Assembly (NCBI GenBank): GCA_964607755.1
Contig: CAZSMC010000001.1
Coordinates: forward strand, 81,677-145,676
Direction: 5' to 3'
Origin: an uncultured Cytophagia bacterium
GTDB taxonomy: Bacteria; Zhuqueibacterota; Zhuqueibacteria; Residuimicrobiales; Krinioviventaceae
DNA length: 64,000 nt
Shown: piece after piece, positions 44,275 through 60,801 of the stretch
How positions within the stretch are numbered: position 1 is the first letter of the stretch
How the letters are laid out: each line of letters begins with the position of its first letter
Position numbers and translations under genes: made by a program
The notes under the pieces: model-generated
What the model was told of the DNA's origin: nothing
The model's database searches: none
What the model saw: the letters and a program-made list of their open reading frames with translations, nothing else

Positions 44275-44742
44275 ATGCCTGTGCATTTTATACGCGTCAT
44301 TCGCGAACTTTCAGATAACCGTTCACGACAGGAAAGTGAAAATTCATTTTTTTACACAGATGTCGACCGGATGTGCACTGGCCGATGGGAACCCAACACA
44401 GATATCACTGAAAGTGAAGACGAGGTTTTTATTCTTGTCGAACTTGCCGGTGTAAAGCGCGAAGATATTACGGTGAAAGTAAAAAATGGAAAATTGCTTA
44501 TCAAGGGATTGCGCCGGTACATTTTGCCAGATAAAAATGTCTATTTTCATCAACTCGAGATAAATTGTGGAGAATTTTTGAAAACCATTCCTATTCCGCA
44601 GTCTATCGAGCACAATGAAATTTCTGCCCAATTCTACGAAGGTCTTCTCGAAATCCGCATTTCAAAAACAGACAAACCTGTGGAAATACCTGTCAGTTCC
44701 GAATGGCACAAAGAAAATTCGCATGAAAAGGAGAGGCATTGA
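44275..44742 (+). CDS. Hsp20/alpha-crystallin small heat-shock protein
   Basis: WEPNTDITESEDEVFILVELAGVKREDITV...GLLEIRI alpha-crystallin domain. Confidence 0.8.
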   Translation: MPVHFIRVIRELSDNRSRQESENSFFYTDVDRMCTGRWEPNTDITESEDEVFILVELAGVKREDITVKVKNGKLLIKGLRRYILPDKNVYFHQLEINCGEFLKTIPIPQSIEHNEISAQFYEGLLEIRISKTDKPVEIPVSSEWHKENSHEKERH

Positions 44743-44748
44743 GAAAAT

Positions 44749-47145
44749 ATGAATGAAAATAAATACAATATAAAATTGGATCCGGATCAGGAAATACTGG
44801 AAAAGATCCCCCATGAACTGTCAATCTTACCGTTGCGCGATACTGTCGCTTTCCCAAATATTGTCACCCCGCTGGTCGTGGCAAGAGAAAAATCGGTCAA
44901 GTTGATCAACGATGTGCTTTCCGGTGACCGGATGCTTGGACTCGTGGCACAGAAAAATAGCGAAGTGGAAGAACCTACGCCCGATGATATTTTTTCTTAT
45001 GGTACTGCTGCCAGCATTTTAAGAATGCTCAAATTCCCGGACGGATCACTGCGAGTTCTGGTCCAGGGTATATCCCGTATCAAACTGCTAAAACTGGAGC
45101 AAGAGGATCCATATCTTATTTATAAAGTGAGATTGACCCCGCATGAATACAAAGAATCAACGGAACTTGAAGCGCTGAAACGTAACATTTCCAATCAGTT
45201 TCAGGAAATTGTCGCCAACGTTCCGCAATTGCCGGATGAACTGCAGGTTGTGGTAATGAACACCAGCCATCCCGGAAAATTAGCAGACCTTGTGGCTTCG
45301 AACCTGAATTTATCGCTTGAAGAAAAACAGAAAATCATCGAGACCATAGATATCAAAAAACGTCTCGAGCTCCTCATGGTCTACGTGAACCGGGAAAGCG
45401 AAGTTCTCAAAATGGGTTCAAAAATCCAGGACCAGGTACAAAGTGAACTGGGGAAAAATCAACGCGAATATTTTTTGCGTGAACAATTGCGAGCGATACA
45501 AAAAGAGTTAGGTATAGGCGACGAACGGACTGCCGAACTGCAAGAGCTTTCTGATAAAATCGATAAAGCGGGTATGCCAGAAGAAGCCGAACGTGAAGCA
45601 AGGCGTGAACTGGATCGGTTGTCAAAAATGCAGCCGGGTGCGGCAGAATATACTGTTTCACGAACTTTTATTGATTGGATGATTTCACTGCCATGGTCTG
45701 TTTCGACTGAAGAACACCTGGACATCGAAGCTGCCCAGCAGGTGCTGGATGAGGACCATTACGATCTTGAAAAAGTCAAAGAGCGGATTGTTGAGTATTT
45801 AGCTGTGCGCACGTTAAAGAGTGATTCAAAGGGCCCCATACTTTGTTTTGTTGGTCCGCCAGGAGTGGGAAAAACATCGCTCGGCCAATCCATTGCCAGG
45901 GCTACCGGACGGAAATTTTACCGCATTTCTCTCGGCGGCATTCACGACGAAGCTGAAATTCGCGGACACCGCCGAACCTACATCGGCTCGCTGCCGGGCC
46001 GGATTATTCGCGGTATGAAATCTGTCGGAAGCAATAATCCGGTCTTTATGTTGGACGAGATCGATAAAGTGGGCCAGGACTTTCGTGGCGATCCATCGTC
46101 CGCTTTGCTCGAGGTGCTTGATCCAGAGCAAAATCACTCGTTTTCAGATCATTATCTCGATGTGCCGTTTGATCTGTCACGCGTGATGTTCATCACTACA
46201 GCGAACATCCTGGATACCATACCCTCTGCCTTGCTCGATCGTATGGAAGTCATCCGGATACCAGGTTACGTGGACGAAGACAAGCTGCAAATTGCGACAA
46301 GGTACCTGGTTCCGCGACAAATAAGAGAAAATGGTTTAAAAAAGAAAAATATCTCCTTTAATAAAAGCGGTTTACGCCGAATTATTCACGATTATACCCG
46401 TGAAGCTGGCGTTCGAAATCTTGAGCGCCAGATTGCCTCTGTTTGCCGCAAAGTAGCGCGAGACGTCGCTTCCGGTAAGGAAGAAATGCACAAGATTACA
46501 TCCGAAAATGTACCTGATTATTTGGGACCGCAAAAATATTATTCTGAAGTGAAAGAACGCACCGCCATGTCCGGTGTGGCAACCGGTCTGGCATGGACAC
46601 CGACCGGCGGTGATGTACTTTTTGTCGAAGCTACAGGAATGCCCGGTGACAATAAATTGACTTTGACCGGTCAGCTTGGAGATGTAATGAAAGAGTCGGC
46701 ACAAGCTGCTCTTTCTTATGCCCGGTCTCGCGCAAAAGATTTGGATATTTCACCATCTAAATTCAGCAAAACAGATATTCATATCCATGTCCCGGCAGGT
46801 GCAATCCCTAAAGACGGTCCGTCCGCCGGTGTGACAATCACAACAGCGCTGATCTCGTTACTCAAAGACAAGCCAGTTCGTAACGATATTGCCATGACCG
46901 GCGAAATAACCTTGCGCGGCAAAGTACTGCCTGTTGGCGGCATCAAGGAAAAGGTGTTGGCGGCACGGAGAGCCGGAATTAAAAAAGTTATCCTTCCGGA
47001 TAAAAACAAGAACGATGTGGAAGAAATCTCCGAGCATGATAAAAAAGGCATGCAGTTCTATCCGGTCGAATCGCTTGATCAAGTTCTTGAATTGGCACTG
47101 AGAAAAAAACCATCAAAAAAAGTGAATGAAAATGACACAGGATAA
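44749..47145 (+). CDS. lon: ATP-dependent protease Lon
   Basis: LON N-domain, Walker [14 protein letters not shown], catalytic Ser motif [16 protein letters not shown] with the Lys region; 798 aa. Confidence 0.9.
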
Positions 47146-48544
47146 TTTTAGCAAACTGGCTGATAAATGCAAGCAGATCAACCAGGAACATCTTTTAACC
47201 TTTTGGAACGAACTGGACACAAAACAAAAAGAGCAACTTGAGGAGCAAATCAATCAACTCGAGGCGGATCTGATCCGCAAACTTCAGACCCTGCTCAAGG
47301 AAAAAGCCAGTCCGAATGACAAAGCCAGGGCTACGTTAGAACCCATGCCGGTGATCACTTTACCCAAAACAGATGCAGAGCGAAAGACTTTTCAAAGGTA
47401 CAAACAGCGTGGCGAGGACATGCTTCGACAGGGCAAAATGGCTGTCATTCTGGTCGCTGGCGGCCAGGGAACACGTCTTGGTTTTCCGCATCCCAAGGGA
47501 ATGTTTCCTGTCGGACCGGTCTCGAACCGAACACTTTTTCAATATCACACCGAAAAGATCCGTGCGCTCGAGCAACGGTATCGGGTCACTCTTCCTTTTT
47601 ATATCATGACCAGTCCATTAAACCGCAATGAGACAGAAAATTTTTTCAGGCGAAATAATTATTTTGGCAAATCCCCCGACTCTATTTTTTTTGAGCAGGG
47701 CATGCTTCCGGCAATGGATGATAATGGCCGCATTTATTTGCGTGACCGCGATGCTCTTTTTATGTCCCCGGATGGTCACGGCGGTCTGTTACGAGCCTTG
47801 GCAAAAAAAGGATTGCTAAAAGATATGCGCCAAAGAGGTGTTGAATATATGTTTTACTTTCAAGTCGATAATCCTCTGGTCAAAATCTGCGATCCGGTTT
47901 ATATCGGCGGTCATATTGAGCAGAGAGCTGAAATGTCAGTGAAAACCATTTACAAGCGTTCCTGGGATGAAAAGCTCGGCGTTCCGGGTATCCGCAACGG
48001 TCAGCGGGTGATTATTGAATATTCCGAACTCTCCGAGCAAGATAAAAAAGCAAAAACAAGTGACGGCACATTCAAATATGGCCAGGGCAGTATTGCCATT
48101 CATTTGTTTAATCTCGGTTTTTTTGAGCGGTTATCTGAATCCGAATATTTACCCTTTCATGTTGCGCATAAAAAAATTGAGCACATCACCCCAGAAGGTG
48201 AAATGGTGGAACCTGAAGAACCAAACGGATTCAAGTTCGAGCAATTCATTTTTGACGCCCTGCCCCGAGCAAAAGAGGTGATGATTATGGAGACGGACAG
48301 AGATGAAGAATTCAGTCCGATAAAAAACGCCGATGGAGAAGACTCGCCAGCCACAGCCCGCCAGGACCTGTCCAATCTATTTGCTGGCTGGCTGGAAGAC
48401 TGTCAAGTGGATGTAAAACGCGACAGTGCCGGTAATGCACTAAACAGGATAGAAATCAGTCCGCTGTACGCACTGGATAAAAGTGACCTTGAACATAAAT
48501 TACCAGAAAATTTTATTGCCAGGGGAGATGTCCTCCTGGAATAA
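47126..48544 (+). CDS. UDPGP-family UDP-sugar pyrophosphorylase (UAP1/UGP-like, eukaryotic-type fold)
   Basis: LVAGGQGTRLGFPHPKGMFPVG nucleotide-binding loop and YIMTSPLN motif of the UDPGP family. Confidence 0.6.
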   Translation: MKMTQDNFSKLADKCKQINQEHLLTFWNELDTKQKEQLEEQINQLEADLIRKLQTLLKEKASPNDKARATLEPMPVITLPKTDAERKTFQRYKQRGEDMLRQGKMAVILVAGGQGTRLGFPHPKGMFPVGPVSNRTLFQYHTEKIRALEQRYRVTLPFYIMTSPLNRNETENFFRRNNYFGKSPDSIFFEQGMLPAMDDNGRIYLRDRDALFMSPDGHGGLLRALAKKGLLKDMRQRGVEYMFYFQVDNPLVKICDPVYIGGHIEQRAEMSVKTIYKRSWDEKLGVPGIRNGQRVIIEYSELSEQDKKAKTSDGTFKYGQGSIAIHLFNLGFFERLSESEYLPFHVAHKKIEHITPEGEMVEPEEPNGFKFEQFIFDALPRAKEVMIMETDRDEEFSPIKNADGEDSPATARQDLSNLFAGWLEDCQVDVKRDSAGNALNRIEISPLYALDKSDLEHKLPENFIARGDVLLE

Positions 48545-48583: not shown

Positions 48584-51500
48584 GTGACAAAAAAAAGCAG
48601 AAACACTGAGGTTACAAAACGGCCCGTTTGGAAACGAGTGGGGCGTTTTTTTATTTTTTTCGTCCCTGGTCTTGTCGTTCTTTTTTTGTTACTTGGCCTT
48701 GCGCTTCATATCTATCTCACACCGGAACGCGTTGGAAAATTTGCTGCACATACACTGCAAAAAAATTATCACCAGCATCTCGAGATGGAACCAGTGCATT
48801 TCAGTCTTTTTAATGGGCTGGAATACCGCAATATCCGATTATCAGCTTTGCCAGATTCAGTGCCCGTGTCCTCATCTCTTCCTGATATGACTTTAAAGGC
48901 GGACCGGTTGTACATTAAATACAGTCTGCTGCGTTTGTTTTACCGCGAATTTGTTATTAAAAAGATCATACTTGACAATCCAGAGCTGGAAATCTCAATG
49001 ACTGCTGAACCTCCGAAAACAGTAAAAAGTCAGGCAGATATTGCAGAAACTTCTGTAACAAAAGATACTCTTTTTTCTCCGCTGGAGATAAAACTCAATA
49101 CCGTGCAATTAAACAATGCCCGCATCACCGCCAACTTGCAAGACTCGCTGCAAAGTCAACACATTTTTCTGAGCAATTTGAGCATCACGCTGGATAATGT
49201 TAAAACGCCAAGAGGAGATATTTTGGCATCGAACAACGCTCTGGGCGGTGATTTTGGACTATTTCTGAAAAAGGCGGATTTTGCCTATCGCAAAAAAGGT
49301 TTGCCAGAGGAGACTGTCGATATTAACGGCACTGTTGATCTAAAATCGCGCCTGTTTATCAATTCATTAAATGATATTACTTTTACACTGAACCTTGAAC
49401 TGTTAAACGCTGAATTAAAAGATGCTGAACAGTTGACAATAAAAATCGATTTTCCTGTTCGCACAAACATTAACGGACAGGCCGATGTTGGAAAAGGTAT
49501 TGTCGAATGTGATCCCATCAGCTTTATAGTTCAGGATCAAACATGGCTGGACCTCTCGCTGCGGGCAGATAGTATTCTCACTGTTCCATACATTTCTGCG
49601 TCGATGAACGAAAGCAGAATTCCCATTGATCAGCTCTTCTCACTGAGTCAAAAATTTATTCCGGATTCGCTTTTCCCGGATTATTATCTGCATAATAAAA
49701 AAGCTGCCATCTCCTTTGCCGGTACGTCACTTAAAGGACATCTGCCGGATTCACTTGCAAAACATAAACTCGACATTAACGCTGTGATTAACCTCTCGGA
49801 TTTTGGCATCACGCTCAATAATGGCGAATATTTAATTGAAAATTTTCATTTTTCCACTGACCTCAAAAGTGTGTTTTCTTTTCACGGACTGGAAAAAACC
49901 GTATCATCGGTATCCATGAACCTTGATTCCCTGTCTGTCATGACCGTCGAAAATATGCCGCTAACCTCCGGACCGGCAGAAATAGACGTTGCCGCAGAAC
50001 TTGATCAGTTTTCTCCACGAACGATTAGCGGTGAAATGAGTTTCCCTGATTTGGTTGGCGCAGATTTCTCTGGCGGATTTTCGTTATCCTCGTCATCAAC
50101 AGTCGAAAATTTGAGCGGTAAAGCAATGTTTACAATAGCCAACTTTGACCTTCGTCGCCTGCCAGACACGCCAGCGCAAGGCACTGTTGGAGCTTCTTTA
50201 TCAATTGATGTCAATACACTCGAGTCAATAGCTGCTCATTTTAGGGTGAACACAACTCCTGTCACTCTTGAAAACGGAGCAAGTTATACCTTTCCGGAAA
50301 TGCATTTTTCGACTGACGCTTTTGCTCGAACAGATGTTCAGATACAGACGGTCTACCTTGATTCCCTTTACGCGGCATTTAACGATATTTTGCACATGCA
50401 CGCTAATGGTTCGTTCACAAATGAACCTGTTAAGAAGATGCATCTTAATATTGCCGATTTCAAAATAGAGCACACCAAACTTGTCGACTTTATGCCGCTT
50501 TCTCCGGGCGATCCACTCCAGGAACTTGAGGTCTCCGGTTTTACATCCCTTTCAGGTTATGCAGATGCAACGATGGACGGAGATTCGTTAACATTTGATG
50601 TTCAAACTCGGCTCTCTGCTCCAGACATTTCTGTTGATTATCAACCGGCGCAATTTTCCATAAGCGACATAAAATTTCAAACGTTTTTGGATATGAATTC
50701 CCAAAAAGGTTTGAAAAGCCGTGTCTCACTTGATATCGGTAAGGCGAATCTGTTGACGCTCCGCAGACAAGCCTTTACCAATAGTGCCATGAAATTGCAG
50801 TTGTCGAGTCAGGATTTTAATACATTCAAAGTGGACAGCGGCTACATCTCTTTGCCTGATCTGCACTTTTACACACAGTTCGATGCACAAGCTGAAAATG
50901 TGCAAAGCGATCCCCGCATCGATGCCAGACTTGTCATGGATTTCAATGTGCAGGATTCACTGCAAATTATAAGAGATCTTGTTGTTTCCGGAAAAAGTAA
51001 TCTCACCGCAGCTCTTGTTGCAGATACCAGCACAGCTATACTGGATTGCCGGCTCGAAAGCGACAACGTCAATGTTTTCGCAGGAATGAACACAGTCATT
51101 GAAAACATTTTTGCAGATGTCACAATACATCAACAGATTGATCTTGAAAGAGGACTGTTGATTGGCACGGAAAAGCCTCTAATACAAACACCTCACCACC
51201 GGATGCCGGATTACATGTTGTACCGTTCCTATTTTCAGCCATCAGATCAATCCGGTGTCTCTCAGAGCACAATCAAAATTGAGCGGATTGTTTCCGGCGA
51301 ATATGAATTGAATAACGCAATCGTTACAGCCTTTTTCGGCAATGGCCGGATCGAAGTACCTCACTTTTATTTGGATGTTTATAACGGCAATATCGGCGGA
51401 TGGGTATCGATAGACGCTGCAAACAAAAAGCCAGAGAACGTTTCATACAAACTATCAGCCAACGTCTCTGGTGTAAACTCTGCTTATCTTCTCGCGCGCG

Positions 51501-51850
51501 GAACCCGGTCCGAGGAAAGTATTCTGAATGCAAATACAGAATTGTACGGCAGCGGTTTGAATGTTGAACAGAATTTTGATATTGGCGGTCATTTTTATAT
51601 TACAGAAATCGGCTCACGATTCGCAGATAATGTACTGCGCTCTCTTGATCCGGAAGGAAAAGACTCGGGTATCCGTACAACAAGAATATTGATGAACCGC
51701 GGTTTTAAACCGCGTCTTTTTACTTTTGAAATCAGAAATGGTTATTGTTATCCATCGGTTTCTTTCAAGCAACCGTGGTATTTCCCAATACGGCTCAGTG
51801 GCGGACAGATCGAATTTGGACGGATTCCACTCGACTATTTTATTCAGTAA
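48584..51850 (+). CDS. AsmA-like/YdbH-like large inner-membrane-anchored protein (putative intermembrane lipid-transport family)
   Basis: 1088 aa; a single N-terminal TM anchor (FFIFFVPGLVVLFLLLGLAL) followed by a long repetitive domain predicted to be beta-rich; immediately followed by a DUF1318 lipoprotein gene, as in ydbH-ynbE-ydbL. Confidence 0.4.
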   Translation: MTKKSRNTEVTKRPVWKRVGRFFIFFVPGLVVLFLLLGLALHIYLTPERVGKFAAHTLQKNYHQHLEMEPVHFSLFNGLEYRNIRLSALPDSVPVSSSLPDMTLKADRLYIKYSLLRLFYREFVIKKIILDNPELEISMTAEPPKTVKSQADIAETSVTKDTLFSPLEIKLNTVQLNNARITANLQDSLQSQHIFLSNLSITLDNVKTPRGDILASNNALGGDFGLFLKKADFAYRKKGLPEETVDINGTVDLKSRLFINSLNDITFTLNLELLNAELKDAEQLTIKIDFPVRTNINGQADVGKGIVECDPISFIVQDQTWLDLSLRADSILTVPYISASMNESRIPIDQLFSLSQKFIPDSLFPDYYLHNKKAAISFAGTSLKGHLPDSLAKHKLDINAVINLSDFGITLNNGEYLIENFHFSTDLKSVFSFHGLEKTVSSVSMNLDSLSVMTVENMPLTSGPAEIDVAAELDQFSPRTISGEMSFPDLVGADFSGGFSLSSSSTVENLSGKAMFTIANFDLRRLPDTPAQGTVGASLSIDVNTLESIAAHFRVNTTPVTLENGASYTFPEMHFSTDAFARTDVQIQTVYLDSLYAAFNDILHMHANGSFTNEPVKKMHLNIADFKIEHTKLVDFMPLSPGDPLQELEVSGFTSLSGYADATMDGDSLTFDVQTRLSAPDISVDYQPAQFSISDIKFQTFLDMNSQKGLKSRVSLDIGKANLLTLRRQAFTNSAMKLQLSSQDFNTFKVDSGYISLPDLHFYTQFDAQAENVQSDPRIDARLVMDFNVQDSLQIIRDLVVSGKSNLTAALVADTSTAILDCRLESDNVNVFAGMNTVIENIFADVTIHQQIDLERGLLIGTEKPLIQTPHHRMPDYMLYRSYFQPSDQSGVSQSTIKIERIVSGEYELNNAIVTAFFGNGRIEVPHFYLDVYNGNIGGWVSIDAANKKPENVSYKLSANVSGVNSAYLLARGTRSEESILNANTELYGSGLNVEQNFDIGGHFYITEIGSRFADNVLRSLDPEGKDSGIRTTRILMNRGFKPRLFTFEIRNGYCYPSVSFKQPWYFPIRLSGGQIEFGRIPLDYFIQ

Positions 51851-51882
51851 CAAATGAGGCTTTTACTCCATTGGAGGATGGG

Positions 51883-52437
51883 ATGAAATATATTTTGCTT
51901 TTATTTTTTATCGTGCTTTTGTTCACGCAGTGCAGTGTGAAAACACCGGAAATTACCCTCACCGGCGAAAAGACAGCTCTGGAAAATCAGGTTCTGGGCA
52001 ACTATGAACAAGTAGAAAATGATATCTGGGTCACAGCTTCGTCACGAGCCGGCAAAACGCAACGAGACACGCTGAGATCGGCCCGCCAGCAAAATGTGCT
52101 GGATGCGCTCAGAGCAAGAAAATTCAACCAGGACGAAATTAGTGAACTAAAAAAAGCGCACGTCATCGGAGAAAACAATCAGGGGTTTGTGGAAATATTG
52201 GGTGGCGAGCAATACGACAATAATCCCCAATACAGGAACATGGTCAATAGAATCGTTGAGGACGAAAACCAGGCGCGGCGCGTTATTTACCAGCGCCTGG
52301 TGACGGTGAATAACAGGGCAAAATATACTGCGGAAACCAGAGTAAAATCGGTTTTTGCCAGTATGCGTCAGCAGGAATCACCAGCAGGAACCATGATTCA
52401 AAAAGCTGACGGCACATGGGTTGAAAAGGAAAAGTAA
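51883..52437 (+). CDS. DUF1318 (YdbL-like) periplasmic lipoprotein
   Basis: Start re-assigned to ATG 51883 with GGAGG RBS; lipobox LLFTQCS; C-terminal RRVIYQRLV...KADGTWVEKEK matches the YdbL/DUF1318 pattern. Confidence 0.45.
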   Translation: MKYILLLFFIVLLFTQCSVKTPEITLTGEKTALENQVLGNYEQVENDIWVTASSRAGKTQRDTLRSARQQNVLDALRARKFNQDEISELKKAHVIGENNQGFVEILGGEQYDNNPQYRNMVNRIVEDENQARRVIYQRLVTVNNRAKYTAETRVKSVFASMRQQESPAGTMIQKADGTWVEKEK

Positions 52438-52440
52438 GCC

Positions 52441-55400
52441 ATGATCTACAAGAATGTAAAATATTCACTGCTGCAATTGTTTTATCTTCTGTTTTCAGTT
52501 TTTTCTTTGCTTTTTATTCTATATGCAAACCTTTTCTCCCAGACGATTCCTGAACAATTCCGGCAGGTAACGACGCATGCTGATATCGATTTGGCACCAA
52601 GACTTTCGCCGGACGGCAAATGGCTTGCTTTTGTATCGAAACGTTCGGGCAATTATGATATCTGGTTGCGGAATATGCAAAACGGGCGAACCCGCCAGTT
52701 AACCACCCACCGCGCTGATGATTATTACCCGGCATGGGATCCAAAAAGCAGTTACATTGTGTTTGTCTCCCAGCGCAGCGATGCAGAAGGTGATGTGTTC
52801 AAACTCGAACTATCGAACATTTTGGGCGAGCTTGTCGCCAGAAAAAAGCCCGAGCAGTTGACTTTTTACAAAGGATTTGACGGTTATCCATGTGTATCCC
52901 CGGATGGCAAACAAATCGCCTGGGTTAGCGATCGCTCTGGTTTGGATAATATCTGGCTGCAGAGCAAGGGCAGGAATAAAAATGTACGCATATTAACGCA
53001 CGGCGGCGCAACGCATCCGGTCTGGAGCCCGGTCCAGGATTATCTGGCATTTACAACCTTTCGTGAAGATAAAAGCAACGGCGATATCTGGCTGCTCAAT
53101 CTTTATGCCCCAAAAGGAGCGTACGTTCCGAAAACACCTGTGGACAGTCTTGAGCGCCCGATGTGGCCTGTGACGAAAGGGCCGGCAAGGGACGGATTTC
53201 CGGTTTTTTCACCCGATGCAAAACAAATTGCTTTTGTTCGCCGTGATTTCAATACAGACAAAAACGGTAAAATCACGCCGAATGATGCGGCAGCCATCTG
53301 GAGTGTTGACATTTCCTGGGTTCCCGAGGATACATCTGCCAACAATGATCCTTTGCTAAAGCTCTATGGCGATTCGTTTAATCCCGAAATTGTTCACAAA
53401 GCTCATATCGCAACCCAGGGCTACAACACCATCCAGCCGGAATGGGGAACAGACCTGCGCATTTATTGTTCGTCTTCTCACAGCGGCAATGATGATATTT
53501 GGAGTTTGCCTGATAGCGGATTTTTCCCCGCACTCGAAAATCCTGCAGCTCAGTTCCGTTACGCTGATGAAAATTTCACCCTGCCCAACAATCTGACTTT
53601 TCACAGTCTCGATCTTTTCTTCCTTTCAGGTACGTTGTCTGAAAGGCAAAAGTTGTCATTATGGAATCGGATACAGGCCTTTCAGAATGTGTGCACAAAC
53701 TTTTCTGATGATGAATTATGTGCAGCAGCACTATTGCAGCAAAGTGTCTGTTATCATATTTTAGGCCACACTTTCAGAGCTCTAAAAATCATTCAGTACA
53801 TTAGAGAACAGGCCCGCGACCAGGAGCTCATTTCAGCCAAAGCGGATATTATGGCCACAGTTATGGCAAAAACAGTGGATCGAGATTCAGCGTCGTTATA
53901 CAATCTCCTCAATGATTTACAACGCCTTGAACAAACCGAAACGTACCACCCCCAAGCCACAGCTCTGGTTTACATCATTATCGGAGATGTGTACGACAAA
54001 ATTAATGATAATGAAAAAGCAATGTCGTATTACACACGCGCTGTTGAAAAATATCCGGATATCCGCGAACTAGCTGCTGAAAGTCTTTACAAACGGGGAA
54101 TACTGCACAAGAAAAATGACGAGTCTGAAAAAGCGATTGGAGATTTTTCAACGGTTCTTGACACATATAGCGACATTGAAAAATGGCGGCACCTGGCGCA
54201 AAAAGAGCTTTTTGGAATTTTTGAGAAAAATGTGGCAACCCGGCAAAATTATGTTGAACGCTATGAATCTATCGCTGAAAAGTATTCGGGAAATCCCTCT
54301 GTCTCTGCAGAAGCACTTTATCGTAAAGCAGCGCTTTTCCGGGAAAATGAAGACTATGCAAAAGCGCTATCAACGTTGGATTATATCGAAAATAATTTTC
54401 AGGACCATCAGGATTACACCTTTAAAGCCGCGCTTAAAAAAGCCGGTATTTTATTTGATTCGGGACAAGACAATAAAGCATTTTCCATACTGGATTCTCT
54501 TTATACTTTTCACATCGACAAAAATCCCAGCCTTGCGGATCAAGCTCAAAAGAGAATGGTTCAGGCACTTGTACGCGCTGCAGATGAATTGCGTGTCAGC
54601 AATGACTTAAAAATTGCTCTGCCTAATTATAAGCACGCCTGGCAATTAGCCCCGGACAATGTGGATGCACATCGCGGTTACATACAATGTCTCTATCGCC
54701 TGGGCCGTATTGATGAAGCTATGAGCGAATACGATGCTCTAAGCAAACAAGTCCCTGACAATAATATTGTTCAGTATGCCCGGGGTCTTGCCTATTCCTA
54801 CAAAGGCACAGAGAAAGCGGACCTCAAAAACGATCCTTATGGCATCAAACCGGAATATCTCAAAAAATCCAACGATATCATCCGCCAGGCACTTGCACAG
54901 GATTACACCTTCATAGATGCCTATCTGACAATGAGTTACAACTATGAGACTCTGGAAACCCACAATATTCGGGAACAGCAAAGGTCCAAATCGTTTTTAC
55001 GCAAATCATGGAACACTGTAACCGCTCCGCTGTTGTGGACTTTTCGTACACTCACTTTTTGGAGCGAAACCCGCGAACCGAGATACTATGAAGATGCCAT
55101 TCAGGAATTGAGCCGTGCGCTGGCATTGAATGATGAAAAGCAAAATCCGGAACTCGAAGCGCGTTTAGCTCTGAACATGGCGAACAATTATTACAAATTA
55201 GGGGAATTCGGATTTAAACGCGCTTATGAATACTATCATATTCGCATGAGGCACGATTCCACATTTGAAGACATTCAACAGGAAGCCGCGATAAAGTCGC
55301 GCATGGGACATTGCGCATTGGTCGTCCAAGACCTGGATAAAGGGCCCGGTTATTTAAAGCGCTCCATTCAGTTGTATAAAAAATTGAACAGAGACATCCA

Positions 55401-58400
55401 GGTGCTGATCAATACCAAAAGGCTGGCTCTGTTGTATGAGATTGGCGGCGATTCACAGCAAGCCTTGCGCTATTATCAGGAAGCGGCTGATGTCGAACAG
55501 CGCCGCAGCTTCCACACCGGACTCATGCGCAGTTATCGAAGCATGGCGCATCACAGCCAAATCCTCAACAGGCAGAAAGATGCCATGACTTATTCCGAAA
55601 AAGCTTTGGAGCTTTTACATAGTGATCTGATAAAACAAACAGAAGGTAAACCGATTTACCTTCAACTTGGATTGATGGGCATTTACTTTCCAATACCGTA
55701 TGATTTGCGCAATTTCGGGGTAAAATCTACCACCGAATTAACTACAGATCAGGAAGAAGCTTTTGTGTACAATGTATTAGCGAATAATTATTTGAATGAC
55801 AAGACCTATGACAAAACTCTGGAATATTTGCATAAAAAATGGAAGATTTATAAAGAACGCAAGGATGCGGATTCACAAGCGATTATATACAACAATATTG
55901 GTTATATAAACTATATCAAGGGCGACTATTATCAGGCATGGCTGGGTTTTACAAATTCGTATTGGAAGTGCTATAAAATCCATTACATAGCGGGTCAGGC
56001 GTTAAACATTCGCAACTCGGCTGAAATCGTCCTGGCAATGGCCAGAGCATCAGACCCTTATAATCGTCGAAATCTCAAAAAATGCCATGACTGGATTACC
56101 AATAAAATACACGAAATGATGCAATTGATGGAACCGCAAAAAGAACTCTACTATGATACTTTTATTCATTTTCATTTGCTTTTGGCACAGCTCGCTTTGA
56201 TTGATCCGGTTTACAATAAGAGTGATGATTTGCAAGGAACTATTTTCTCTTCGCTTACCTCTTTTGATAATGCCGAGGCCGCACTGGTTCAGCTTGATTT
56301 GGCATTAACATTGAGCAGGCTATATAAACAGAAAACTGAAGAATGTGCCATCGAATTTCATTACGGCAGGATTTATCATTTGATTGGCACCGAGAGAGAA
56401 GCTTTTCGCCATCTAATGAAAAGCCGGACCCTGGCCATCCGGGAACGGTACCTGGAGATGTTGTGGCAAATCAATACGTATATTGGCAAGACGCTCGAAG
56501 AGATGGATGATCCATTAAGAAAAGAACTGGTCAAAAATAGAACAGCACTGGATTATTATCAGGAAGCCATTGACGTTTTGCAAAGCCGGTCTTTCAAAAC
56601 ACCAGGAATCTCGATCCGGACACTTCGGGAGGCGCATGAAGAGCCTTACCGGCAGGCAATTGCTTTTATGATTGAAAAAGGCGACACCCTGGGCGCGTTT
56701 AAAACCACGGAAGCAATGCGTTCAGAAACATTCCTGAATATGGTCTCCAGAGAGAAATTACACTTTTTCTCGCAAAAAGATAGTACTTTTTATGAGCGTG
56801 CCCGTACACTCGGAGCTGACATCAACGAAAGCGAAATAAACCTGCTTCAACTCCGTCAGAGTCCGAATGTGTCGCAGTCCAGAATTAACAATCTAACCAA
56901 TGAACTTTTATTAAAAAAGCAAGAATATAACGAGCTGCTTCAACAAATAAGCATAGAGACCCCAGGACTTGAACCGCTGATTCATGTGCCTGATTTGGAA
57001 ATCTCTCAGATACAAACCCAGATTCCTTCCAGTCGGGGATTATTTTATCACGTTACGCTCGATGACTTTACTGCGGTTTGGATTATTACTAGTGATAACG
57101 TTCAATTTTTCAGGCTGCCAGTTTATAATCCTCAATTCACAGATGCTCTATTAACATTCGAACATCAGTTAGCGCAAGATTCCGCCAGCATACATGACGT
57201 GCCAACATTCCTGGATATTCTTTTTGCGCCTCTAAAAAAAGCAGCTTTTGAATATGTCACCGTGATCCCGGATTATGATGTGCTACTTTTCCCATGGCAT
57301 ATTATTAATTTTTCATCAATTGCTGAAAACATGCCCCGAATAGAACGCATAAATTCCAGTTTATCGAGTTATTCTCTTGCAAATAAAAACCGGAAACTTG
57401 AGGGGCAAAAAATTGCCACCACAGCCTCAACAAAATTATGGGAAAGTGAGAATTATACTGTACTGAATCCTGATTCTTTAATATCCAAAAAAAGATCAAC
57501 AGCTCAGGCAATGACCAATGAAGCGAACATTTTCCATCTAAAAGGTTCAACAAACTGGGACCAAATGAGTCCGTTGCGCACGACATTTGCTTTCCCGGCA
57601 CCAAAACAGAGTACACAGAATTTGACAGCTTTGTCGCTCTACGGGTATACCGCGAATCCATACATTTGCCTGCTGGACCCTGGTGCGGATTCGCTTTACT
57701 TCAACGGAAGCGAGCCGGCAATCGCTCTTGAATGTTCTTTTTTCTACAGCGGTGTGCCCTCGGTTATATTCACTTTATGGCCCAATGCAGATTCTACTTC
57801 AAGTATTTTTTATGCAGAATTTTATAAAAATTTAACAAACATGCCTCCGGCCATGGCATTACATACAACACAGAAAAATTTAAATGCAAACGGTGTTCCG
57901 GTTAGTGTCTGGGGTCGTTACCAATTTTACGGGTTCCCGGGAATGACCCGGCAGGAAGAGCAACTGTTTGCCAGCGAGAATCTCGATTTTGTCATCCAAC
58001 GCGCTGATGAAGCATTTGACAGAGGTGATTGGCTAAATGCTCTGCAATCCTACCGGCAGGCTATGGAATTGAGTGAACGCCGGGGCAATGAAATGCAGCA
58101 CCAGCTCCTTGACAGAATGCTGCAAAGTACGATGAATGGTGCCTTGTGGTCAGAGGCAATTGGTATCCAAAAACAAATTATTCATCTGGCAGAGGCGGAC
58201 AAAAACTGGCAAGCAGCCGCCAGAGGGTACAAACAACTGGCTAACTATTATAGCGAAAACAGTCAATATGAAGAAGCGGCAAAAGCCAATCAGAAATACG
58301 ACCAGCTTACCAGCCGTTACGGGCTCGAACGCAATGAAGGAAATCTTTTCATAGAGACGGCACAGATTTATGAACGCGGGCATCGCTATGAAAAAGCAAT

Positions 58401-60801
58401 AGAGTGGTACCTGAAAGCTGCAAGCGTTTTTCGTCAGGCGGGAGAAATAGGGAACGAAATACAATGTCTGCGTTTTGTCGCAAATTTGTACACCACAGAA
58501 TTGAACAATCTGCCCCAGGCTCTGGAGTATTACACGCAAGCCAATAGCAAGTTAGAAACCAATGTTCCTTCAACGGGTATTGACTTGTCTCTTGACATTT
58601 CTTCTGTTTATGAAAAGATGGGCCTTTTTACTGCAGCAGAGGAATTTGCAGGAAAAGCTTTAAATAATGCACAAAATATATCTGATTCTTTGCGGATTGC
58701 CCGGTCTCAACTCCGACTGGGTTGGGTTTTACTCAGAGAACGGGAATATCACAAAGCTCTTGTTCTGCAAGCGAGTGCAAAAAAGTATTTTATGACTAAT
58801 AATCAATATAAAGCTTTAATTGATGCTTACAAATGCCAGAGCTATATCGAATTAATCCGGAAAAACTATCAATCCGCAATTGATCATGCTTTTTCAGCCC
58901 TGAAGATAGCCAATAACCAACAACTGGAATATCATCAAGGAGAGCTCTTGCAGTTCATTGGCGTTATGCAATGGCTGCAGGGCGCGCCTCAGGCCGCAAT
59001 AGCCACTCTTCGGGAAGCGGTTTCCACCGACTCGCTCAGCAATGGTCATAGGCAAATGGCCCGTTCCATGCTCTCACTGGCGTCTTTTCATCGTCAGCTT
59101 GGCCAGGGCATCCTGGCGAAACGCTACCTCAACCGGGTTCGATCTCTGGAAGAAAAGTACCTGGATGCCGAGGCGATTGCGACCGGGCGTTACCTTTCCA
59201 GTCTGATGGCATCGCCGGAGAACGCTTTGGAACTGGCAGAGTTGGCTCATCAAACAGCTCAAAATCTTTTTATTGCAGAAATTGAATGGCGCGCTTTGGC
59301 ACAAAAAGCAGAATTAGCCGCTCAAGCAAACAGGATATCCGATGCGGTTTCATGTTTCGAGCAGAGCACAAGTTTAATTGAGAGCCAGCACTCTACGATA
59401 CGTGACCCAATATTTCAGAGTCTGGAGAAAAACAGAAATGATGTTTATACGGATTATATCAATCTGTTAATCAAACTCAACCAGCATGAACAGGCGCTCG
59501 TCATAGCAGACAGAGCAGAACAGCAACGGTTTCTCGACAAAATAAACGTCAGAAAGATTTCGTTTTCTCAAGAGCCTGGCAGTCTTTTTTCAGAACTGGT
59601 CAACGTGCGGGAAAAGCGTATACTGTCCCGGCATGAGTTTGGTCAGCTTCGAGATGAACCGGACAGCGTGGATGATCAAAACGCCATTGAATTACAAAAT
59701 CAGTTTACAAAGAGCGAGTCTCTCCTGGTCGACCAAATAAAAGAATTGGATGCTCGCAAAGTGCAACTTTTCAGGCCAGAGCCCATTAATATAAAAGAGC
59801 TGCAATCCATTTTGCCGGAAAACATGGCTGTGTTGTGCTTTTCACGGAATGATCAAAAAATCGCGTCCTGGCTTTTAAGCGGATCCGAATTGATGTTCAA
59901 ATCCACGGAATTTGAAATTAATTTAACAAAACACATTAACAATCTCGTTACCGGTCTGTCCGATAAAAGCAAAGCGGTCAACAGTAAGACGCTTTATCAG
60001 CTTTTCTGGGAGCCCTGGCGAAATAATGCGCAAAAGTACAAGTATATTGTCATTGTACCGTTTGGCGATTTACAGAATCTGCCTTTTTCTGTAGTCAAGA
60101 GAGACAAAGAAAAGCCAATAGGTCTGTTGCATAATCTGTCAACAGCAGCCAGTCTTACGCAACTCGAGATGGCGTTGCAAAACAGTCGCGATTCACAAAA
60201 CGCTGATGCCCGGGTCACAACTATTAACTATTGGACAGCCCGGGACACGAGTGCCACAGCCGTTTATTCAAAATTGTTGGTGCAATGCCTTGACCGGTAT
60301 TTTGATTCGGTTAACAATGTCCTGGCAAAGGAAACATCTGATGTTTTTATGAATCGTGATCAGTCACCACCAGGATTCGTGCTGTTTAGTTGCCCTGTTT
60401 ATAGCGATACAATAAATGCATTAAACTCGTCAATACAGATTTCTTCTATTGATGACAAATCGGCTCGATTAGAAGTGAGGACACTTTTAGCAGAACAGTT
60501 TCCCGCCCGACGCGTCGGGGTTTATGGTTTATCTCCTCACCCGCAATCGCATTCAATTTTACCAACCGGTTCCGGATTGATGCACAGCCTTATTTTTAGC
60601 GGCACATCGTCGGTGCTCTCTACACAATTTAGCAACAATGCCGGGCCTTGTTCTGTGCTATTTAAAAGGTTTTTCCGTTTTATGAGCCAGGGTTACAGCC
60701 AAGCCGAATCTCTTCGTCGTGCCCGTCAAGTTGTGTATGAGATGGTTGATTCACATCCTTCAGCATGGGGCGGCGTTACGCTGTATGGCGATTTTCGATA
60801 G
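52441..60801 (+). CDS. giant (2786 aa) TolB-like beta-propeller + TPR-array + tandem CHAT-like domain protein
   Basis: Signal/TM N-terminus; PD40/TolB-like repeats (SPDGKWLAFVSKRSGNYDIWL, YPAWDPKSSYIVFVSQRSD, CVSPDGKQIAWVSDRSG, FSPDAKQIAFVRRD); at least 30 TPR-like repeats; two regions with the CHAT C-terminal pattern (AFLxAGAxxVVxSLWxVxD...FY): SFFYSGVPSVIFTLWPNADSTSSIFYAEFY around 57.7 kb, and LMHSLIFSGTSSVLSTQFSNN...FKRFF at the C-terminus, each preceded by an IVIVPFGDL-type entry motif. Confidence 0.55.
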   Translation: MIYKNVKYSLLQLFYLLFSVFSLLFILYANLFSQTIPEQFRQVTTHADIDLAPRLSPDGKWLAFVSKRSGNYDIWLRNMQNGRTRQLTTHRADDYYPAWDPKSSYIVFVSQRSDAEGDVFKLELSNILGELVARKKPEQLTFYKGFDGYPCVSPDGKQIAWVSDRSGLDNIWLQSKGRNKNVRILTHGGATHPVWSPVQDYLAFTTFREDKSNGDIWLLNLYAPKGAYVPKTPVDSLERPMWPVTKGPARDGFPVFSPDAKQIAFVRRDFNTDKNGKITPNDAAAIWSVDISWVPEDTSANNDPLLKLYGDSFNPEIVHKAHIATQGYNTIQPEWGTDLRIYCSSSHSGNDDIWSLPDSGFFPALENPAAQFRYADENFTLPNNLTFHSLDLFFLSGTLSERQKLSLWNRIQAFQNVCTNFSDDELCAAALLQQSVCYHILGHTFRALKIIQYIREQARDQELISAKADIMATVMAKTVDRDSASLYNLLNDLQRLEQTETYHPQATALVYIIIGDVYDKINDNEKAMSYYTRAVEKYPDIRELAAESLYKRGILHKKNDESEKAIGDFSTVLDTYSDIEKWRHLAQKELFGIFEKNVATRQNYVERYESIAEKYSGNPSVSAEALYRKAALFRENEDYAKALSTLDYIENNFQDHQDYTFKAALKKAGILFDSGQDNKAFSILDSLYTFHIDKNPSLADQAQKRMVQALVRAADELRVSNDLKIALPNYKHAWQLAPDNVDAHRGYIQCLYRLGRIDEAMSEYDALSKQVPDNNIVQYARGLAYSYKGTEKADLKNDPYGIKPEYLKKSNDIIRQALAQDYTFIDAYLTMSYNYETLETHNIREQQRSKSFLRKSWNTVTAPLLWTFRTLTFWSETREPRYYEDAIQELSRALALNDEKQNPELEARLALNMANNYYKLGEFGFKRAYEYYHIRMRHDSTFEDIQQEAAIKSRMGHCALVVQDLDKGPGYLKRSIQLYKKLNRDIQVLINTKRLALLYEIGGDSQQALRYYQEAADVEQRRSFHTGLMRSYRSMAHHSQILNRQKDAMTYSEKALELLHSDLIKQTEGKPIYLQLGLMGIYFPIPYDLRNFGVKSTTELTTDQEEAFVYNVLANNYLNDKTYDKTLEYLHKKWKIYKERKDADSQAIIYNNIGYINYIKGDYYQAWLGFTNSYWKCYKIHYIAGQALNIRNSAEIVLAMARASDPYNRRNLKKCHDWITNKIHEMMQLMEPQKELYYDTFIHFHLLLAQLALIDPVYNKSDDLQGTIFSSLTSFDNAEAALVQLDLALTLSRLYKQKTEECAIEFHYGRIYHLIGTEREAFRHLMKSRTLAIRERYLEMLWQINTYIGKTLEEMDDPLRKELVKNRTALDYYQEAIDVLQSRSFKTPGISIRTLREAHEEPYRQAIAFMIEKGDTLGAFKTTEAMRSETFLNMVSREKLHFFSQKDSTFYERARTLGADINESEINLLQLRQSPNVSQSRINNLTNELLLKKQEYNELLQQISIETPGLEPLIHVPDLEISQIQTQIPSSRGLFYHVTLDDFTAVWIITSDNVQFFRLPVYNPQFTDALLTFEHQLAQDSASIHDVPTFLDILFAPLKKAAFEYVTVIPDYDVLLFPWHIINFSSIAENMPRIERINSSLSSYSLANKNRKLEGQKIATTASTKLWESENYTVLNPDSLISKKRSTAQAMTNEANIFHLKGSTNWDQMSPLRTTFAFPAPKQSTQNLTALSLYGYTANPYICLLDPGADSLYFNGSEPAIALECSFFYSGVPSVIFTLWPNADSTSSIFYAEFYKNLTNMPPAMALHTTQKNLNANGVPVSVWGRYQFYGFPGMTRQEEQLFASENLDFVIQRADEAFDRGDWLNALQSYRQAMELSERRGNEMQHQLLDRMLQSTMNGALWSEAIGIQKQIIHLAEADKNWQAAARGYKQLANYYSENSQYEEAAKANQKYDQLTSRYGLERNEGNLFIETAQIYERGHRYEKAIEWYLKAASVFRQAGEIGNEIQCLRFVANLYTTELNNLPQALEYYTQANSKLETNVPSTGIDLSLDISSVYEKMGLFTAAEEFAGKALNNAQNISDSLRIARSQLRLGWVLLREREYHKALVLQASAKKYFMTNNQYKALIDAYKCQSYIELIRKNYQSAIDHAFSALKIANNQQLEYHQGELLQFIGVMQWLQGAPQAAIATLREAVSTDSLSNGHRQMARSMLSLASFHRQLGQGILAKRYLNRVRSLEEKYLDAEAIATGRYLSSLMASPENALELAELAHQTAQNLFIAEIEWRALAQKAELAAQANRISDAVSCFEQSTSLIESQHSTIRDPIFQSLEKNRNDVYTDYINLLIKLNQHEQALVIADRAEQQRFLDKINVRKISFSQEPGSLFSELVNVREKRILSRHEFGQLRDEPDSVDDQNAIELQNQFTKSESLLVDQIKELDARKVQLFRPEPINIKELQSILPENMAVLCFSRNDQKIASWLLSGSELMFKSTEFEINLTKHINNLVTGLSDKSKAVNSKTLYQLFWEPWRNNAQKYKYIVIVPFGDLQNLPFSVVKRDKEKPIGLLHNLSTAASLTQLEMALQNSRDSQNADARVTTINYWTARDTSATAVYSKLLVQCLDRYFDSVNNVLAKETSDVFMNRDQSPPGFVLFSCPVYSDTINALNSSIQISSIDDKSARLEVRTLLAEQFPARRVGVYGLSPHPQSHSILPTGSGLMHSLIFSGTSSVLSTQFSNNAGPCSVLFKRFFRFMSQGYSQAESLRRARQVVYEMVDSHPSAWGGVTLYGDFR

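Follow-up and report, generated by a model that had tools for sequence, protein, structure and literature searches.

A giant, predicted periplasmic PD40-TPR-CHAT protein encoded behind a YdbL-family gene in Zhuqueibacterota: a possible scaffold from a clade that has lost the CHAT dyad

AsmA-like bridge proteins are now thought to carry phospholipids to the outer membrane, and to our knowledge their partners and regulation are known for only a few proteobacterial systems. The quality control of outer-membrane biogenesis involves BepA, a periplasmic M48 protease that contains TPRs. In E. coli, YdbL modulates the intermembrane phospholipid bridge of YdbH and YnbE (PMC11126948, PMC13464000).

In Craspase, the TPR-CHAT protein Csx29 (PDB 7x8a, 8eex and 8d9f) is cytoplasmic, has a size of about 700 aa, is bound to gRAMP/Cas7-11 and is activated by RNA. 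His585 and Cys627 of the Sb TPR-CHAT are the proven catalytic dyad, and mutation of the Cys alone abolishes activity (PMC9729208). The precedent for a TPR-CHAT in the periplasm is DdvA of Myxococcus xanthus (PDB 8ROT), which according to its authors is the sole characterised anti-sigma factor with such a periplasmic part (PMC11506125). DdvA consists of a cytoplasmic zinc anti-sigma domain, a TM helix and one CHAT domain with an intact H862/C907 dyad, and has an ECF sigma factor as partner. Separase is a eukaryotic, cytoplasmic or nuclear protein in which two caspase-fold domains are directly apposed.

Here we describe a locus within a stretch of 64,000 nucleotides from a Zhuqueibacterota genome (contig CAZSMC010000001.1; "the window"), where a giant ORF follows a YdbL-family gene. 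An earlier sequence-only reading held that this architecture was not a characterised system. We reached the same view, as no characterised counterpart was found in the searched literature, including searches on KSB1 with CHAT and on DUF1318 with AsmA, and the family is uncharacterised.

The giant ORF and its conserved neighbours

The giant ORF (52441 to 60801, + strand) begins with ATG and encodes 2786 aa followed by a stop, with the frame intact and open throughout. About 75 full-length homologues (22-72% identity, 99% coverage, 2,594-2,901 aa) are collinear with it and come from independent assemblies of candidate division KSB1/Zhuqueibacterota, Calditrichota, LCP-89 and unnamed MAGs. A scan of genome contigs for the giant returned relatives of at most 38% identity, plus one short fragment at 43%, and the family looks vertically inherited with apparently one locus per genome. 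An assembly chimera had been raised as a worry, and a chimera or a decaying pseudogene might be suspected from the repetitive TPR sequence and from the C-terminal third, which diverges fastest in its clade. However, the 2786 codons contain no frame break, the flanking genes are the same in the window and in a 72%-identical relative, and dN/dS against that relative is 0.05-0.16 across all regions (approximate values, because dS nears saturation). Since full-length, collinear relatives exist across all of the lineages above, the giant is not an assembly chimera, and we regard the chance of either artefact as next to nil.

The locus lies in a housekeeping block, TrkH-TrkA-Hsp20-Lon-UDPGP, which is conserved and common to KSB1 genomes. 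The genes for Lon (44749-47145) and UDPGP (47126-48544) overlap by 20 nt and are both co-oriented with the giant. After a 39-nt gap they are followed by an AsmA-like/DUF748 gene (48584 to 51850, + strand; 1088 aa, with an N-terminal TM helix at aa 23-41), and 32 nt further by a gene for a DUF1318/YdbL-family lipoprotein (51883 to 52437, + strand; 184 aa), whose stop lies 3 nt before the ATG of the giant. The co-oriented gene order that had been read from the sequence is thereby confirmed. A scan of 43-62 kb for sigma-70 promoters and intrinsic terminators yielded numerous weak candidates on either strand, none of them well placed, and the case for co-transcription is therefore one of spacing and conserved order.

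The two genes before the giant had been called a YdbH/YdbL-like pair, of which the linkage and the YdbL half stand. Linkage of AsmA-like and YdbL-like genes to the giant is conserved down to about 23% identity. The lipoprotein scores 42 bits with Pfam DUF1318 (GA 27), its family profile aligns with mature E. coli YdbL end to end, and judged by sequence it is a YdbL homologue. It has a lipobox (...LLFTQC) followed by the conserved SVKTPEITLTGEKTALENQ. The most likely start of its gene is ATG 51883 rather than TTG 51745, and the product read from this ATG is identical to the called 184-aa gene. A search of PDB sequences with the protein found no YdbL entry. The YdbH half of the pair did not hold, and the upstream protein can be called AsmA-like/DUF748 only. 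It scores 43 bits with Pfam DUF748, under the GA of 50, its orthologues carry precomputed AsmA and DUF748 matches, and the AsmA-like proteins give generic DUF748/AsmA/TamB_N matches only. A profile of five AsmA-like proteins from giant loci did not match E. coli YdbH, and we therefore rejected YdbH orthology. A search for a YnbE-like gene at the locus, covering the 32-nt gap between the AsmA-like and DUF1318 genes and a conserved N-terminal extension of about 70 aa in the lipoprotein, found none; that the extension is a fused YnbE was rejected at sequence level, as E. coli YnbE has no similarity to it (score -2).

Synteny with AsmA-like genes in relatives, which the earlier reading had proposed to look for, was found: an HMM located an AsmA-like gene upstream of the giant in 39 of 61 loci, about a third having none adjacent. 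The DUF1318 gene is directly upstream in 59 of 69 loci and missing from that position in 10, at a median spacing of ~24 nt and often only a few nt away or overlapping. This partner is retained beside intact (41) and dead (6) giants alike. The invariant genomic unit is the YdbL-family (DUF1318) gene followed by the giant, with the AsmA-like gene usually just upstream. In some loci an amidase gene or a pair of SH3_3 and M48 peptidase genes lies downstream of the giant, and in two loci M48 peptidase genes accompany the AsmA-like-DUF1318 module.

Domain anatomy and the fate of the two CHAT dyads

From N- to C-terminus, the giant comprises a signal peptide, a PD40 propeller of six repeats, a long TPR solenoid, a pseudo-protease of CHAT fold, another TPR array and a second CHAT domain, which amounts to a PD40 head joined to two tandem TPR-CHAT modules. 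The signal peptide or signal anchor (52441 to 52545, + strand; aa 1-35) has its hydrophobic core at aa 9-27, the single hydrophobic segment of the protein and the sole 19-mer with a Kyte-Doolittle mean above 2. Nearly all of the 75 homologues start with a signal peptide or a lipobox, the latter being present in several. The giant is accordingly predicted to be exported and periplasmic, in agreement with the envelope location first suggested for it.

The propeller, of PD40 (TolB/Tricorn) type, spans aa 36-420 (52546 to 53700, + strand) and has about six repeats, five found by motif search and a sixth (aa ~256-285) by eye. Pfam PD40 matches four stretches (E 7e-33 and 2.5e-38), which bears out the PD40/TolB-type repeats noted earlier; the better of these values (2.5e-38), some six repeats and the export signal together describe a PD40-type beta-propeller predicted to lie in the periplasm. 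The match to TIGR02800 (propeller_TolB) is partial, covers propeller repeats only and reaches 104.6 bits, below the equivalog cut-off of 343.15. TolB itself was rejected as an identity for the giant on this score, with no tol/pal genes nearby.

Behind the propeller, the first TPR-type alpha-solenoid takes up about 1,060 aa (aa 421-1480; 53701 to 56880, + strand), and a conservation profile places the best-conserved stretch of the family inside it, at aa ~820-1000. The second array and its linker (aa 1851-2510; 57991 to 59970, + strand) hold about 550 aa of TPRs. Pfam TPR families match at aa 509-540, 712-786, 948-1017, 1974-2034 and 2289-2362, those in the second array including TPR_12 (four stretches), TPR_1/2/8, SNAP and ARM_TT21. 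For aa 741-1480, AF2 (pLDDT 86) predicts a solenoid built wholly of helical repeats, which Foldseek matches to TPR superhelices; the original estimate of TPR-type repeats over more than 1500 aa is therefore reasonable.

Two CHAT-like domains had been proposed, and both are upheld by HMM and by alignment of one unit with the other. The first CHAT-fold unit (aa 1481-1850; 56881 to 57990, + strand), delimited by Pfam CHAT, AF2 with Foldseek, and hhalign, matches Pfam CHAT (PF12770) at aa 1689-1818 with 47.1 bits, over profile positions 137-270 only. The second (aa 2511-2786; 59971 to 60798, + strand) matches the full profile (aa 2515-2784, 61 bits, positions 4-289 of 289). Both scores exceed the Pfam gathering score of 24, and hhalign relates the two units over 250 columns (probability 99.9%, E 2.4e-32). 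Single-sequence searches of PDB sequences gave nothing relevant for either unit. A family profile of the middle unit had no match among PDB sequences either, and the fold was therefore compared with Foldseek. With the AF2 model of aa 1481-1860 (pLDDT 85) as query, this comparison returned Csx29/TPR-CHAT, separase and DdvA (E 1.8e-11 to 4e-7), so that profile match and caspase-type fold are both present. In the columns of this unit that align with the dyad, which are variable, neither His nor Cys is among the six commonest residues of the 75 family members. The middle CHAT lacks the dyad in the whole family and is a pseudo-protease, as the sequence-only reading had surmised for the window protein when it saw no obvious Cys there.

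The C-terminal family profile matches PDB TPR-CHAT/Csx29 (E 2.3e-9) in an alignment that pairs the HG and AC(E/Q)T motifs. The dyad consensus of the family is FSCHG...SACETG, and its columns align with His585/Cys627 of PDB 7x8a_D. Of the 75 relatives, 57 have this His/Cys dyad, and their C-terminal CHAT is presumably a periplasmic caspase-like protease. In the window protein, the column of the catalytic His holds Pro2652 (codon 60394 to 60396, + strand) and that of the catalytic Cys holds Leu2697 (codon 60529 to 60531, + strand). On these substitutions the C-terminal CHAT should be catalytically dead, and the giant of the window, as far as its sequence tells, would be unable to act as a canonical cysteine protease. 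The Cys of FVLFSCPVY, put forward earlier as the candidate nucleophile, does not take over this role: Cys2651 stands in the column just before the missing His, away from the catalytic Cys column, and matches the non-catalytic Cys of the CHG motif. It is conserved in P0001, P0002 and P0033, the three closest dyad-less members. His2700 and His2704 adjoin the former Cys loop and are unconserved even in the closest relatives. A "swapped" dyad of Cys2651 with His2700 or His2704 is judged unlikely because the His positions differ among P0001, P0002 and P0033; with Cys2651 retained and these His residues near, a non-canonical active site is formally conceivable.

A neighbour-joining tree places all 17 dyad-less members, the window protein included, in one clade, and the dyad was lost once, in this clade. 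Within it, conservation is 51% for the propeller, 39% for the first TPR array and lowest, at 17%, for the C-terminal CHAT, which in the intact clade is the best-conserved part (51%). Against the 72%-identical relative, the N-terminal regions have a dN/dS of 0.05-0.08 and the dead CHAT one of ~0.13, values that are approximate with dS near saturation. The dead CHAT is still under purifying selection. The window protein probably derives from an ancestral periplasmic TPR-CHAT protease.

Scaffold, protease or other roles

Both CHAT units lack catalytic residues in this genome, and therefore the giant is most likely a scaffold and not a protease. More specifically, we lean, by a little more than an even chance, towards a non-catalytic periplasmic scaffold that works with the YdbL-type lipoprotein and the AsmA-like envelope module. 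The propeller and the N-terminal TPR solenoid, the parts under strongest constraint here, would bind envelope partners. First among these could be the co-translated YdbL-type lipoprotein, which would in turn connect the giant to the AsmA-like bridge or to the outer-membrane end of that bridge. The degenerate TPR-CHAT modules may have been retained as binding surfaces. Gene linkage is what suggests that the giant touches the DUF1318 lipoprotein and the AsmA-like protein physically, and the giant may have a role in outer-membrane lipid or envelope homeostasis.

Of the "protease or scaffold" left side by side in the sequence-only reading, the scaffold fits and the active C-terminal protease does not, with Pro2652 and Leu2697 in the His and Cys columns. 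An active caspase-like protease that senses envelope stress, and whose C-terminal CHAT cuts periplasmic substrates through Cys2651 or another non-canonical residue, could draw on the full-length CHAT match, the intact dyad of most relatives, the purifying selection on the domain, the Cys2651 common to P0001, P0002 and P0033, and the existence of periplasmic TPR-CHAT proteases such as DdvA. Yet loss of the Cys alone is enough to kill Craspase activity (PMC9729208), and here both columns are substituted. In addition, Cys2651 corresponds to a non-catalytic residue, the nearby His residues are unconserved among the same three proteins, and the C-terminal CHAT evolves fastest within the dyad-less clade, so we consider this very unlikely.

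The giant might also work independently of the lipid-transport module and be a Tol-Pal-like envelope tether or a factor that coordinates cell wall and outer membrane, with a TolB-type propeller and CpoB/YbgF-type TPRs, its adjacency to the AsmA-like module reflecting a shared envelope regulon only. Partial matches to TolB propeller and tol_pal_ybgF/CpoB TPR models point this way, as do the predicted periplasmic location, the amidase or SH3_3 and M48 peptidase genes after the giant in some loci, and the third of loci in which no AsmA-like gene is adjacent. However, all scores are far under the cut-offs (104.6 vs 343; 28 vs 90.1), no tolQRA or pal genes occur in any inspected neighbourhood, and the coupling is tight, widespread and specifically with a YdbL-type lipoprotein; we find such a tether quite unlikely. 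Craspase, SAVED-CHAT and further abortive-infection systems commonly contain TPR-CHAT proteins. An effector of an anti-phage or conflict system would agree with the matches of the CHAT fold to Csx29 and SAVED-CHAT structures, and with the control of a defence island by the TPR-CHAT of DdvA (PMC11506125). It is nevertheless highly improbable for a protein that is predicted to be exported, appears catalytically dead in the window, looks single-locus and vertically inherited, and is encoded in a conserved housekeeping block. PADLOC matched neither the giant nor its two partners to any defence family and reported only a generic TPR model, and the inspected loci have no adjacent cas, CBASS or sigma/anti-sigma genes.

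The scaffold proposed for the window could also be one branch of a wider scheme, which we offer tentatively and think unlikely. The family as a whole would then be a phylum-wide periplasmic caspase-like regulator of the AsmA-like intermembrane lipid bridge, with its propeller and TPR half docked on the YdbL-type lipoprotein. The C-terminal CHAT would, in most lineages, adjust the supply of outer-membrane lipid by cutting a chaperone or a component of the bridge, and the one clade that includes the window would have turned the enzyme into a pure scaffold. In E. coli, turnover of YdbL by DegP hints at the job that CHAT cleavage would do. If true, this would for the first time connect a caspase-fold protease with lipid transport between bacterial membranes.

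In the deep-branching group of KSB1/Zhuqueibacterota, Calditrichota and LCP-89, the gene for a predicted exported PD40-TPR-CHAT giant is thus coupled to one for a YdbL-type lipoprotein and, in most loci, to an AsmA-like gene. If the linkage reflects a complex, the giant would be a new accessory of AsmA-like bridges and also a new periplasmic setting for caspase-fold proteases. The intact-dyad and lost-dyad clades provide a built-in comparison that separates scaffold from protease functions. For annotation, the label "CHAT domain-containing protein" should not be taken here to mean "protease".

Comparison with known systems

Like the giant, Csx29 carries a CHAT caspase-fold domain behind a TPR array, and it is the best Foldseek match of the modelled middle unit. 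Unlike Csx29, the giant is predicted to be exported, is four times larger, has two TPR-CHAT modules and a PD40 propeller, and misses both dyads. No cas genes were found within about 10 kb in seven inspected loci, and PADLOC was negative. The fold is also common to DdvA (Foldseek E 2e-7 to 4e-7; profile match E 0.027). However, the giant has a signal peptide only, which leads directly into the PD40 head, as well as tandem modules and no sigma-factor neighbour in the window; a DdvA-type anti-sigma factor was rejected on these grounds. Separase, likewise among the Foldseek matches, shares the layout of a helical-repeat scaffold that leads into two caspase-fold domains, first a pseudo-protease and then a protease, and some members of the giant family carry precomputed Peptidase_C50 matches. 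In the giant, unlike separase, the CHAT units are about 550 aa of TPRs apart, and each has its own linker and beta-hairpin.

On the side of the envelope, the E. coli YdbH-YnbE-YdbL system and the giant locus have in common an operon arrangement, predicted for the giant locus, in which a DUF1318/YdbL gene follows an AsmA-like gene, with YdbL homologous end to end. The analogy is loose because YdbH orthology could not be detected for the AsmA-like protein and the locus yielded no YnbE-like gene. The YdbL homologue also differs from E. coli YdbL in being a lipoprotein with the ~70-aa N-terminal extension, and the third gene encodes a 2,786-aa PD40-TPR-CHAT protein that has no counterpart in E. 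coli. BepA, a zinc metalloprotease of unrelated fold that is far smaller and has no sequence relationship to the giant, may still offer a conceptual likeness: it joins a protease to TPRs in the periplasm and works on the machinery that assembles the envelope.

Domain architecture and family of the giant

The giant gene is an uninterrupted forward-strand ORF at 52441-60801, with an ATG start and 2786 aa. Pfam places four PD40 stretches within aa 1-420 (E 2.5e-38) and TPR families at aa 509-540, 712-786, 948-1017, 1974-2034 and 2289-2362. CHAT is matched twice, at aa 1689-1818 (47.1 bits, limited to profile positions 137-270) and at aa 2515-2784 (61 bits, full profile). Both scores lie above the gathering score of 24, which bears out the two CHAT-like regions proposed in the sequence-only reading.

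The region aa 741-1480, which lacks good Pfam cover, was modelled from a 15-sequence family alignment. The model (pLDDT 86, pTM 0.71) shows a repeat solenoid made entirely of helices apart from one beta-hairpin insert of low confidence, and its best PDB matches are TPR superhelices, e.g., Ctr9, LGN, Ski3 and OGT. Taken together with aa 421-740 and aa 1851-2400, this model argues for some 1,600 aa of TPR-type repeat. The model of the first, middle CHAT unit (aa 1481-1860; pLDDT 85.2, pTM 0.83) matches Csx29/TPR-CHAT (E 1.8e-11), separase and DdvA, and profile-profile comparison aligns this unit with the C-terminal CHAT unit over 250 columns (99.9% probability, E 2.4e-32). The giant thus consists of a PD40 head and, behind it, two TPR-CHAT modules in tandem. 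Precomputed Peptidase_C50 (separase) matches also accompany CHAT in some homologues with an intact catalytic His/Cys dyad (P0064, P0065 and P0074).

Two conserved elements lie within the solenoid. A hydrophobic segment between TPR helices at aa ~862-885 (window ~55024-55095), APLLWTFRTLTFW, follows the family pattern AP..W..RTLTF....RYYE and directly precedes aa ~900-1000, where conservation across the family peaks. It falls in a lower-confidence region of the AF2 model (pLDDT 57-72), and could be an element contacting a partner, lipid or membrane. The motif G.LG.YFP.P.DL, here LGLMGIYFPIPYDL at aa ~1073-1088 (window ~55657-55704), is modelled as the low-confidence beta-hairpin that breaks the helical solenoid.

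A database search with the giant gave 144 matches, including about 80 near-full-length relatives. The full alignment took in 75 of these (2,594-2,901 aa; 22-72% identity, mostly 97-100% coverage). Named relatives are annotated as "CHAT domain-containing protein" and come from sources including candidate division KSB1 and Calditrichaeota. Scanning species-representative genomes yielded 85 loci; the 80 that were kept belong to KSB1, Candidatus Zhuqueibacterota, Calditrichota and LCP-89, plus MAGs with doubtful labels. Many MAGs carrying a KSB1/Calditrichota-type giant are titled "uncultured Cytophagia bacterium" (loci L008, L019, L020, L022, L028, L033 and others) and one is titled "Actinomycetota"; such titles are probably coarse or wrong taxonomic labels. 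In the nearest relative (72% identity), whose sequence comes from an independent ENA assembly, the giant is flanked on both sides by the same genes as in the window. An assembly chimera, which had been raised as a concern, or a pseudogene is ruled out as far as sequence comparison allows, given the full-length relatives, these shared flanks and the dN/dS values.

Nearly all 75 aligned homologues carry an N-terminal signal peptide, and several have lipoboxes (e.g., ...LFLFSCS and ...LLLTGCMD). The sole strongly hydrophobic 19-mer in the window protein is aa 9-27 (Kyte-Doolittle mean 2.27; next best 1.46), so the entire polypeptide is expected to be periplasmic.

Genetic coupling to a YdbL-type lipoprotein

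Upstream of the giant, and on the same strand, are four genes. Lon (44749-47145) shares 20 nt with a UDPGP-family gene (47126-48544), and a 39-nt gap separates the latter from an AsmA-like/DUF748 gene (48584-51850). The fourth is a DUF1318 gene encoding a YdbL-type lipoprotein. The mechanically listed DUF1318 ORF runs from TTG 51745 to 52437, sharing 106 nt with the AsmA-like gene. A Shine-Dalgarno-like GGAGGA precedes ATG 51883, which opens the lipoprotein signal MKYILLLFFIVLLFTQC|SVKTPE... The product from this ATG (184 aa, lipobox ...LLFTQC) is identical to a called gene in a public collection, and ATG 51883 is likely the real start. Only 3 nt separate the DUF1318 stop codon from the ATG of the giant. 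CstA follows 3' of the giant at 61004.

Two KSB1 loci (L001 and L002) repeat the gene order TrkH-TrkA-Hsp20-Lon-UDPGP-AsmA-like-DUF1318-giant, and a third (L004) matches it except for the missing UDPGP gene. Where present, this gene is of eukaryote type and lies 3' of Lon; in the window, TrkH to UDPGP span 43501-48544. With the AsmA-like-DUF1318-giant genes that come after it, the TrkH-TrkA-Hsp20-Lon block makes up an unusually stable stretch, joining proteostasis and envelope genes. A conserved 370-aa gene without a Pfam match lies 3' of the giant in L001 (18834-19946) and L002 (18510-19622), and is absent from the window.

Amid otherwise different contexts, AsmA-like-DUF1318-giant is retained at ~23-25% identity. 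HMMs of the partner genes, built from five loci, were run across every fetched locus. A same-strand DUF1318 gene lies directly 5' of the giant in 59 of the 69 loci with enough flank, and an AsmA-like gene lies 5' in 39/61, in agreement with the genetic link to an AsmA-like module pointed out in the sequence-only reading. As the DUF1318-giant pair also occurs in several loci without an adjoining AsmA-like gene, the invariant unit is lipoprotein plus giant. The spacing of the pair has a median of ~24 nt (20 nt or less in 21 of 51 loci), and some pairs overlap.

Every giant-linked DUF1318 protein is a lipoprotein, and the start of the mature chain is strongly conserved (C-S-[VI]-K-x-P-E-x-x-[IV]-T-G-E-K-T-x-L-E-N-Q). 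Their C-terminal ~100 aa match mature E. coli YdbL from end to end. Their extension shows no similarity to YnbE. Nor does the AsmA-like protein show similarity to E. coli YdbH, and the earlier YdbH-like label is dropped. Long YdbL-type proteins are also found without a giant, once beside a likely AsmA-like gene in Magnetococcus and once alone; the giant thus appears to have joined an AsmA-like/YdbL module in a lineage-specific manner.

Other genes accompany the module in some lineages. Calditrichota-type loci insert two genes between AsmA-like and DUF1318 (L003 6848-9149; L040 4935-7251; L043 4107-6597), encoding a ~282-aa protein and a ~490-510-aa lipoprotein, neither with a Pfam match. In a distant locus, SH3_3 and Peptidase_M48 genes lie 3' of the giant (L006 18266-19641), and the giant-free Magnetococcus MAG has the same two (L089 4924-6266), followed by a 1206-aa protein (no Pfam match, likely AsmA-like) and DUF1318. 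This hints that periplasmic proteases recur alongside the AsmA-like/DUF1318 module.

Catalytic residues and their loss

Aligned with MAFFT, 75 full-length proteins give the C-terminal CHAT consensus ...lFSCHG.yD...mSACETGLG... The profile of this unit (aa 2511-2786) matches TPR-CHAT/Csx29 chains in the PDB (E 2.3e-9 to 4e-6), and in its alignment to 7x8a_D the family His and Cys fall on His585 and Cys627, respectively, numbered by counting residues in the printed alignment. These form an experimentally supported dyad, in which replacing Cys627 by either Ala or Ser abolishes cleavage (PMC9729208). Both residues are kept in 57 of the 75 members. The window protein has Pro2652 and Leu2697 instead. 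Cys2651 in FVLFSCPVY, previously put forward as the candidate catalytic Cys, is the C of CHG, i.e., the residue before the His column, rather than the nucleophile. The dyad-aligned columns of the middle unit are variable across the whole family and His/Cys are absent from the six commonest residues listed; the earlier suspicion of a pseudo-protease therefore holds and, on sequence grounds, extends throughout the family.

All 17 proteins without the dyad, among them the window protein and its 72% relative, group in one clade of a neighbour-joining tree built from the 75 sequences, which is most simply read as a single loss of the dyad. The intact and dyad-less clades show opposite patterns of constraint. 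Between the intact P0006 and P0068, conservation is highest in the C-terminal CHAT (51%; propeller 32%), whereas between the dyad-less P0001 and P0021 this region is the least conserved (17%; propeller 51%, first TPR array 39%). The DUF1318 partner is kept by intact and dyad-less giants alike. Even so, the dead C-terminal CHAT is not drifting freely. In the comparison with the 72% relative, dN/dS (Nei-Gojobori) comes to 0.05-0.08 in the N-terminal regions, 0.12 in the middle unit and 0.13 in the C-terminal CHAT, values that are approximate as dS (1.5-2.3) is near saturation.

Proposed role and comparison with known systems

In E. coli, the YdbH-YnbE intermembrane bridge has its assembly tuned by YdbL, which binds to YnbE at the C-terminal helix and is in turn degraded by DegP (PMC13464000; PMC11126948). 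From this analogy and the tight gene coupling, the giant and its YdbL-type lipoprotein would most likely form a periplasmic complex, which would work on, or beside, the AsmA-like bridge. Where the dyad is intact, the C-terminal CHAT probably performs regulated proteolysis of a partner. In the lineage of the window, catalysis is gone and constraint has moved to the propeller and first TPR solenoid, which suggests that the window protein acts as a scaffold or adaptor.

The proposal that this gene encodes an envelope caspase-like protease is not supported, and an active non-canonical protease is unlikely with Pro2652 and Leu2697 at the dyad columns and Cys2651 not being the nucleophile. A Tol-Pal-like tether is possible, as the only NCBIfam matches of the giant are to TolB-propeller and CpoB/YbgF, but these are all sub-threshold and no tol or pal neighbours occur in the inspected loci. 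A role in defence is unlikely given the negative PADLOC result, housekeeping synteny and vertical inheritance. A scaffold or adaptor is our preferred reading for the window protein.

In the literature searched, we found no description of a tandem pseudo-CHAT/CHAT behind a PD40 propeller, of the restriction of such giants to KSB1, Calditrichota and LCP-89 relatives, or of their near-obligate pairing with a YdbL-type lipoprotein. The interesting lead is the family-level link of a caspase-fold protease with an AsmA-like/YdbL module. The domains of the giant are of known kinds, and DdvA is the one characterised precedent for a TPR-CHAT in the periplasm (PMC11506125).
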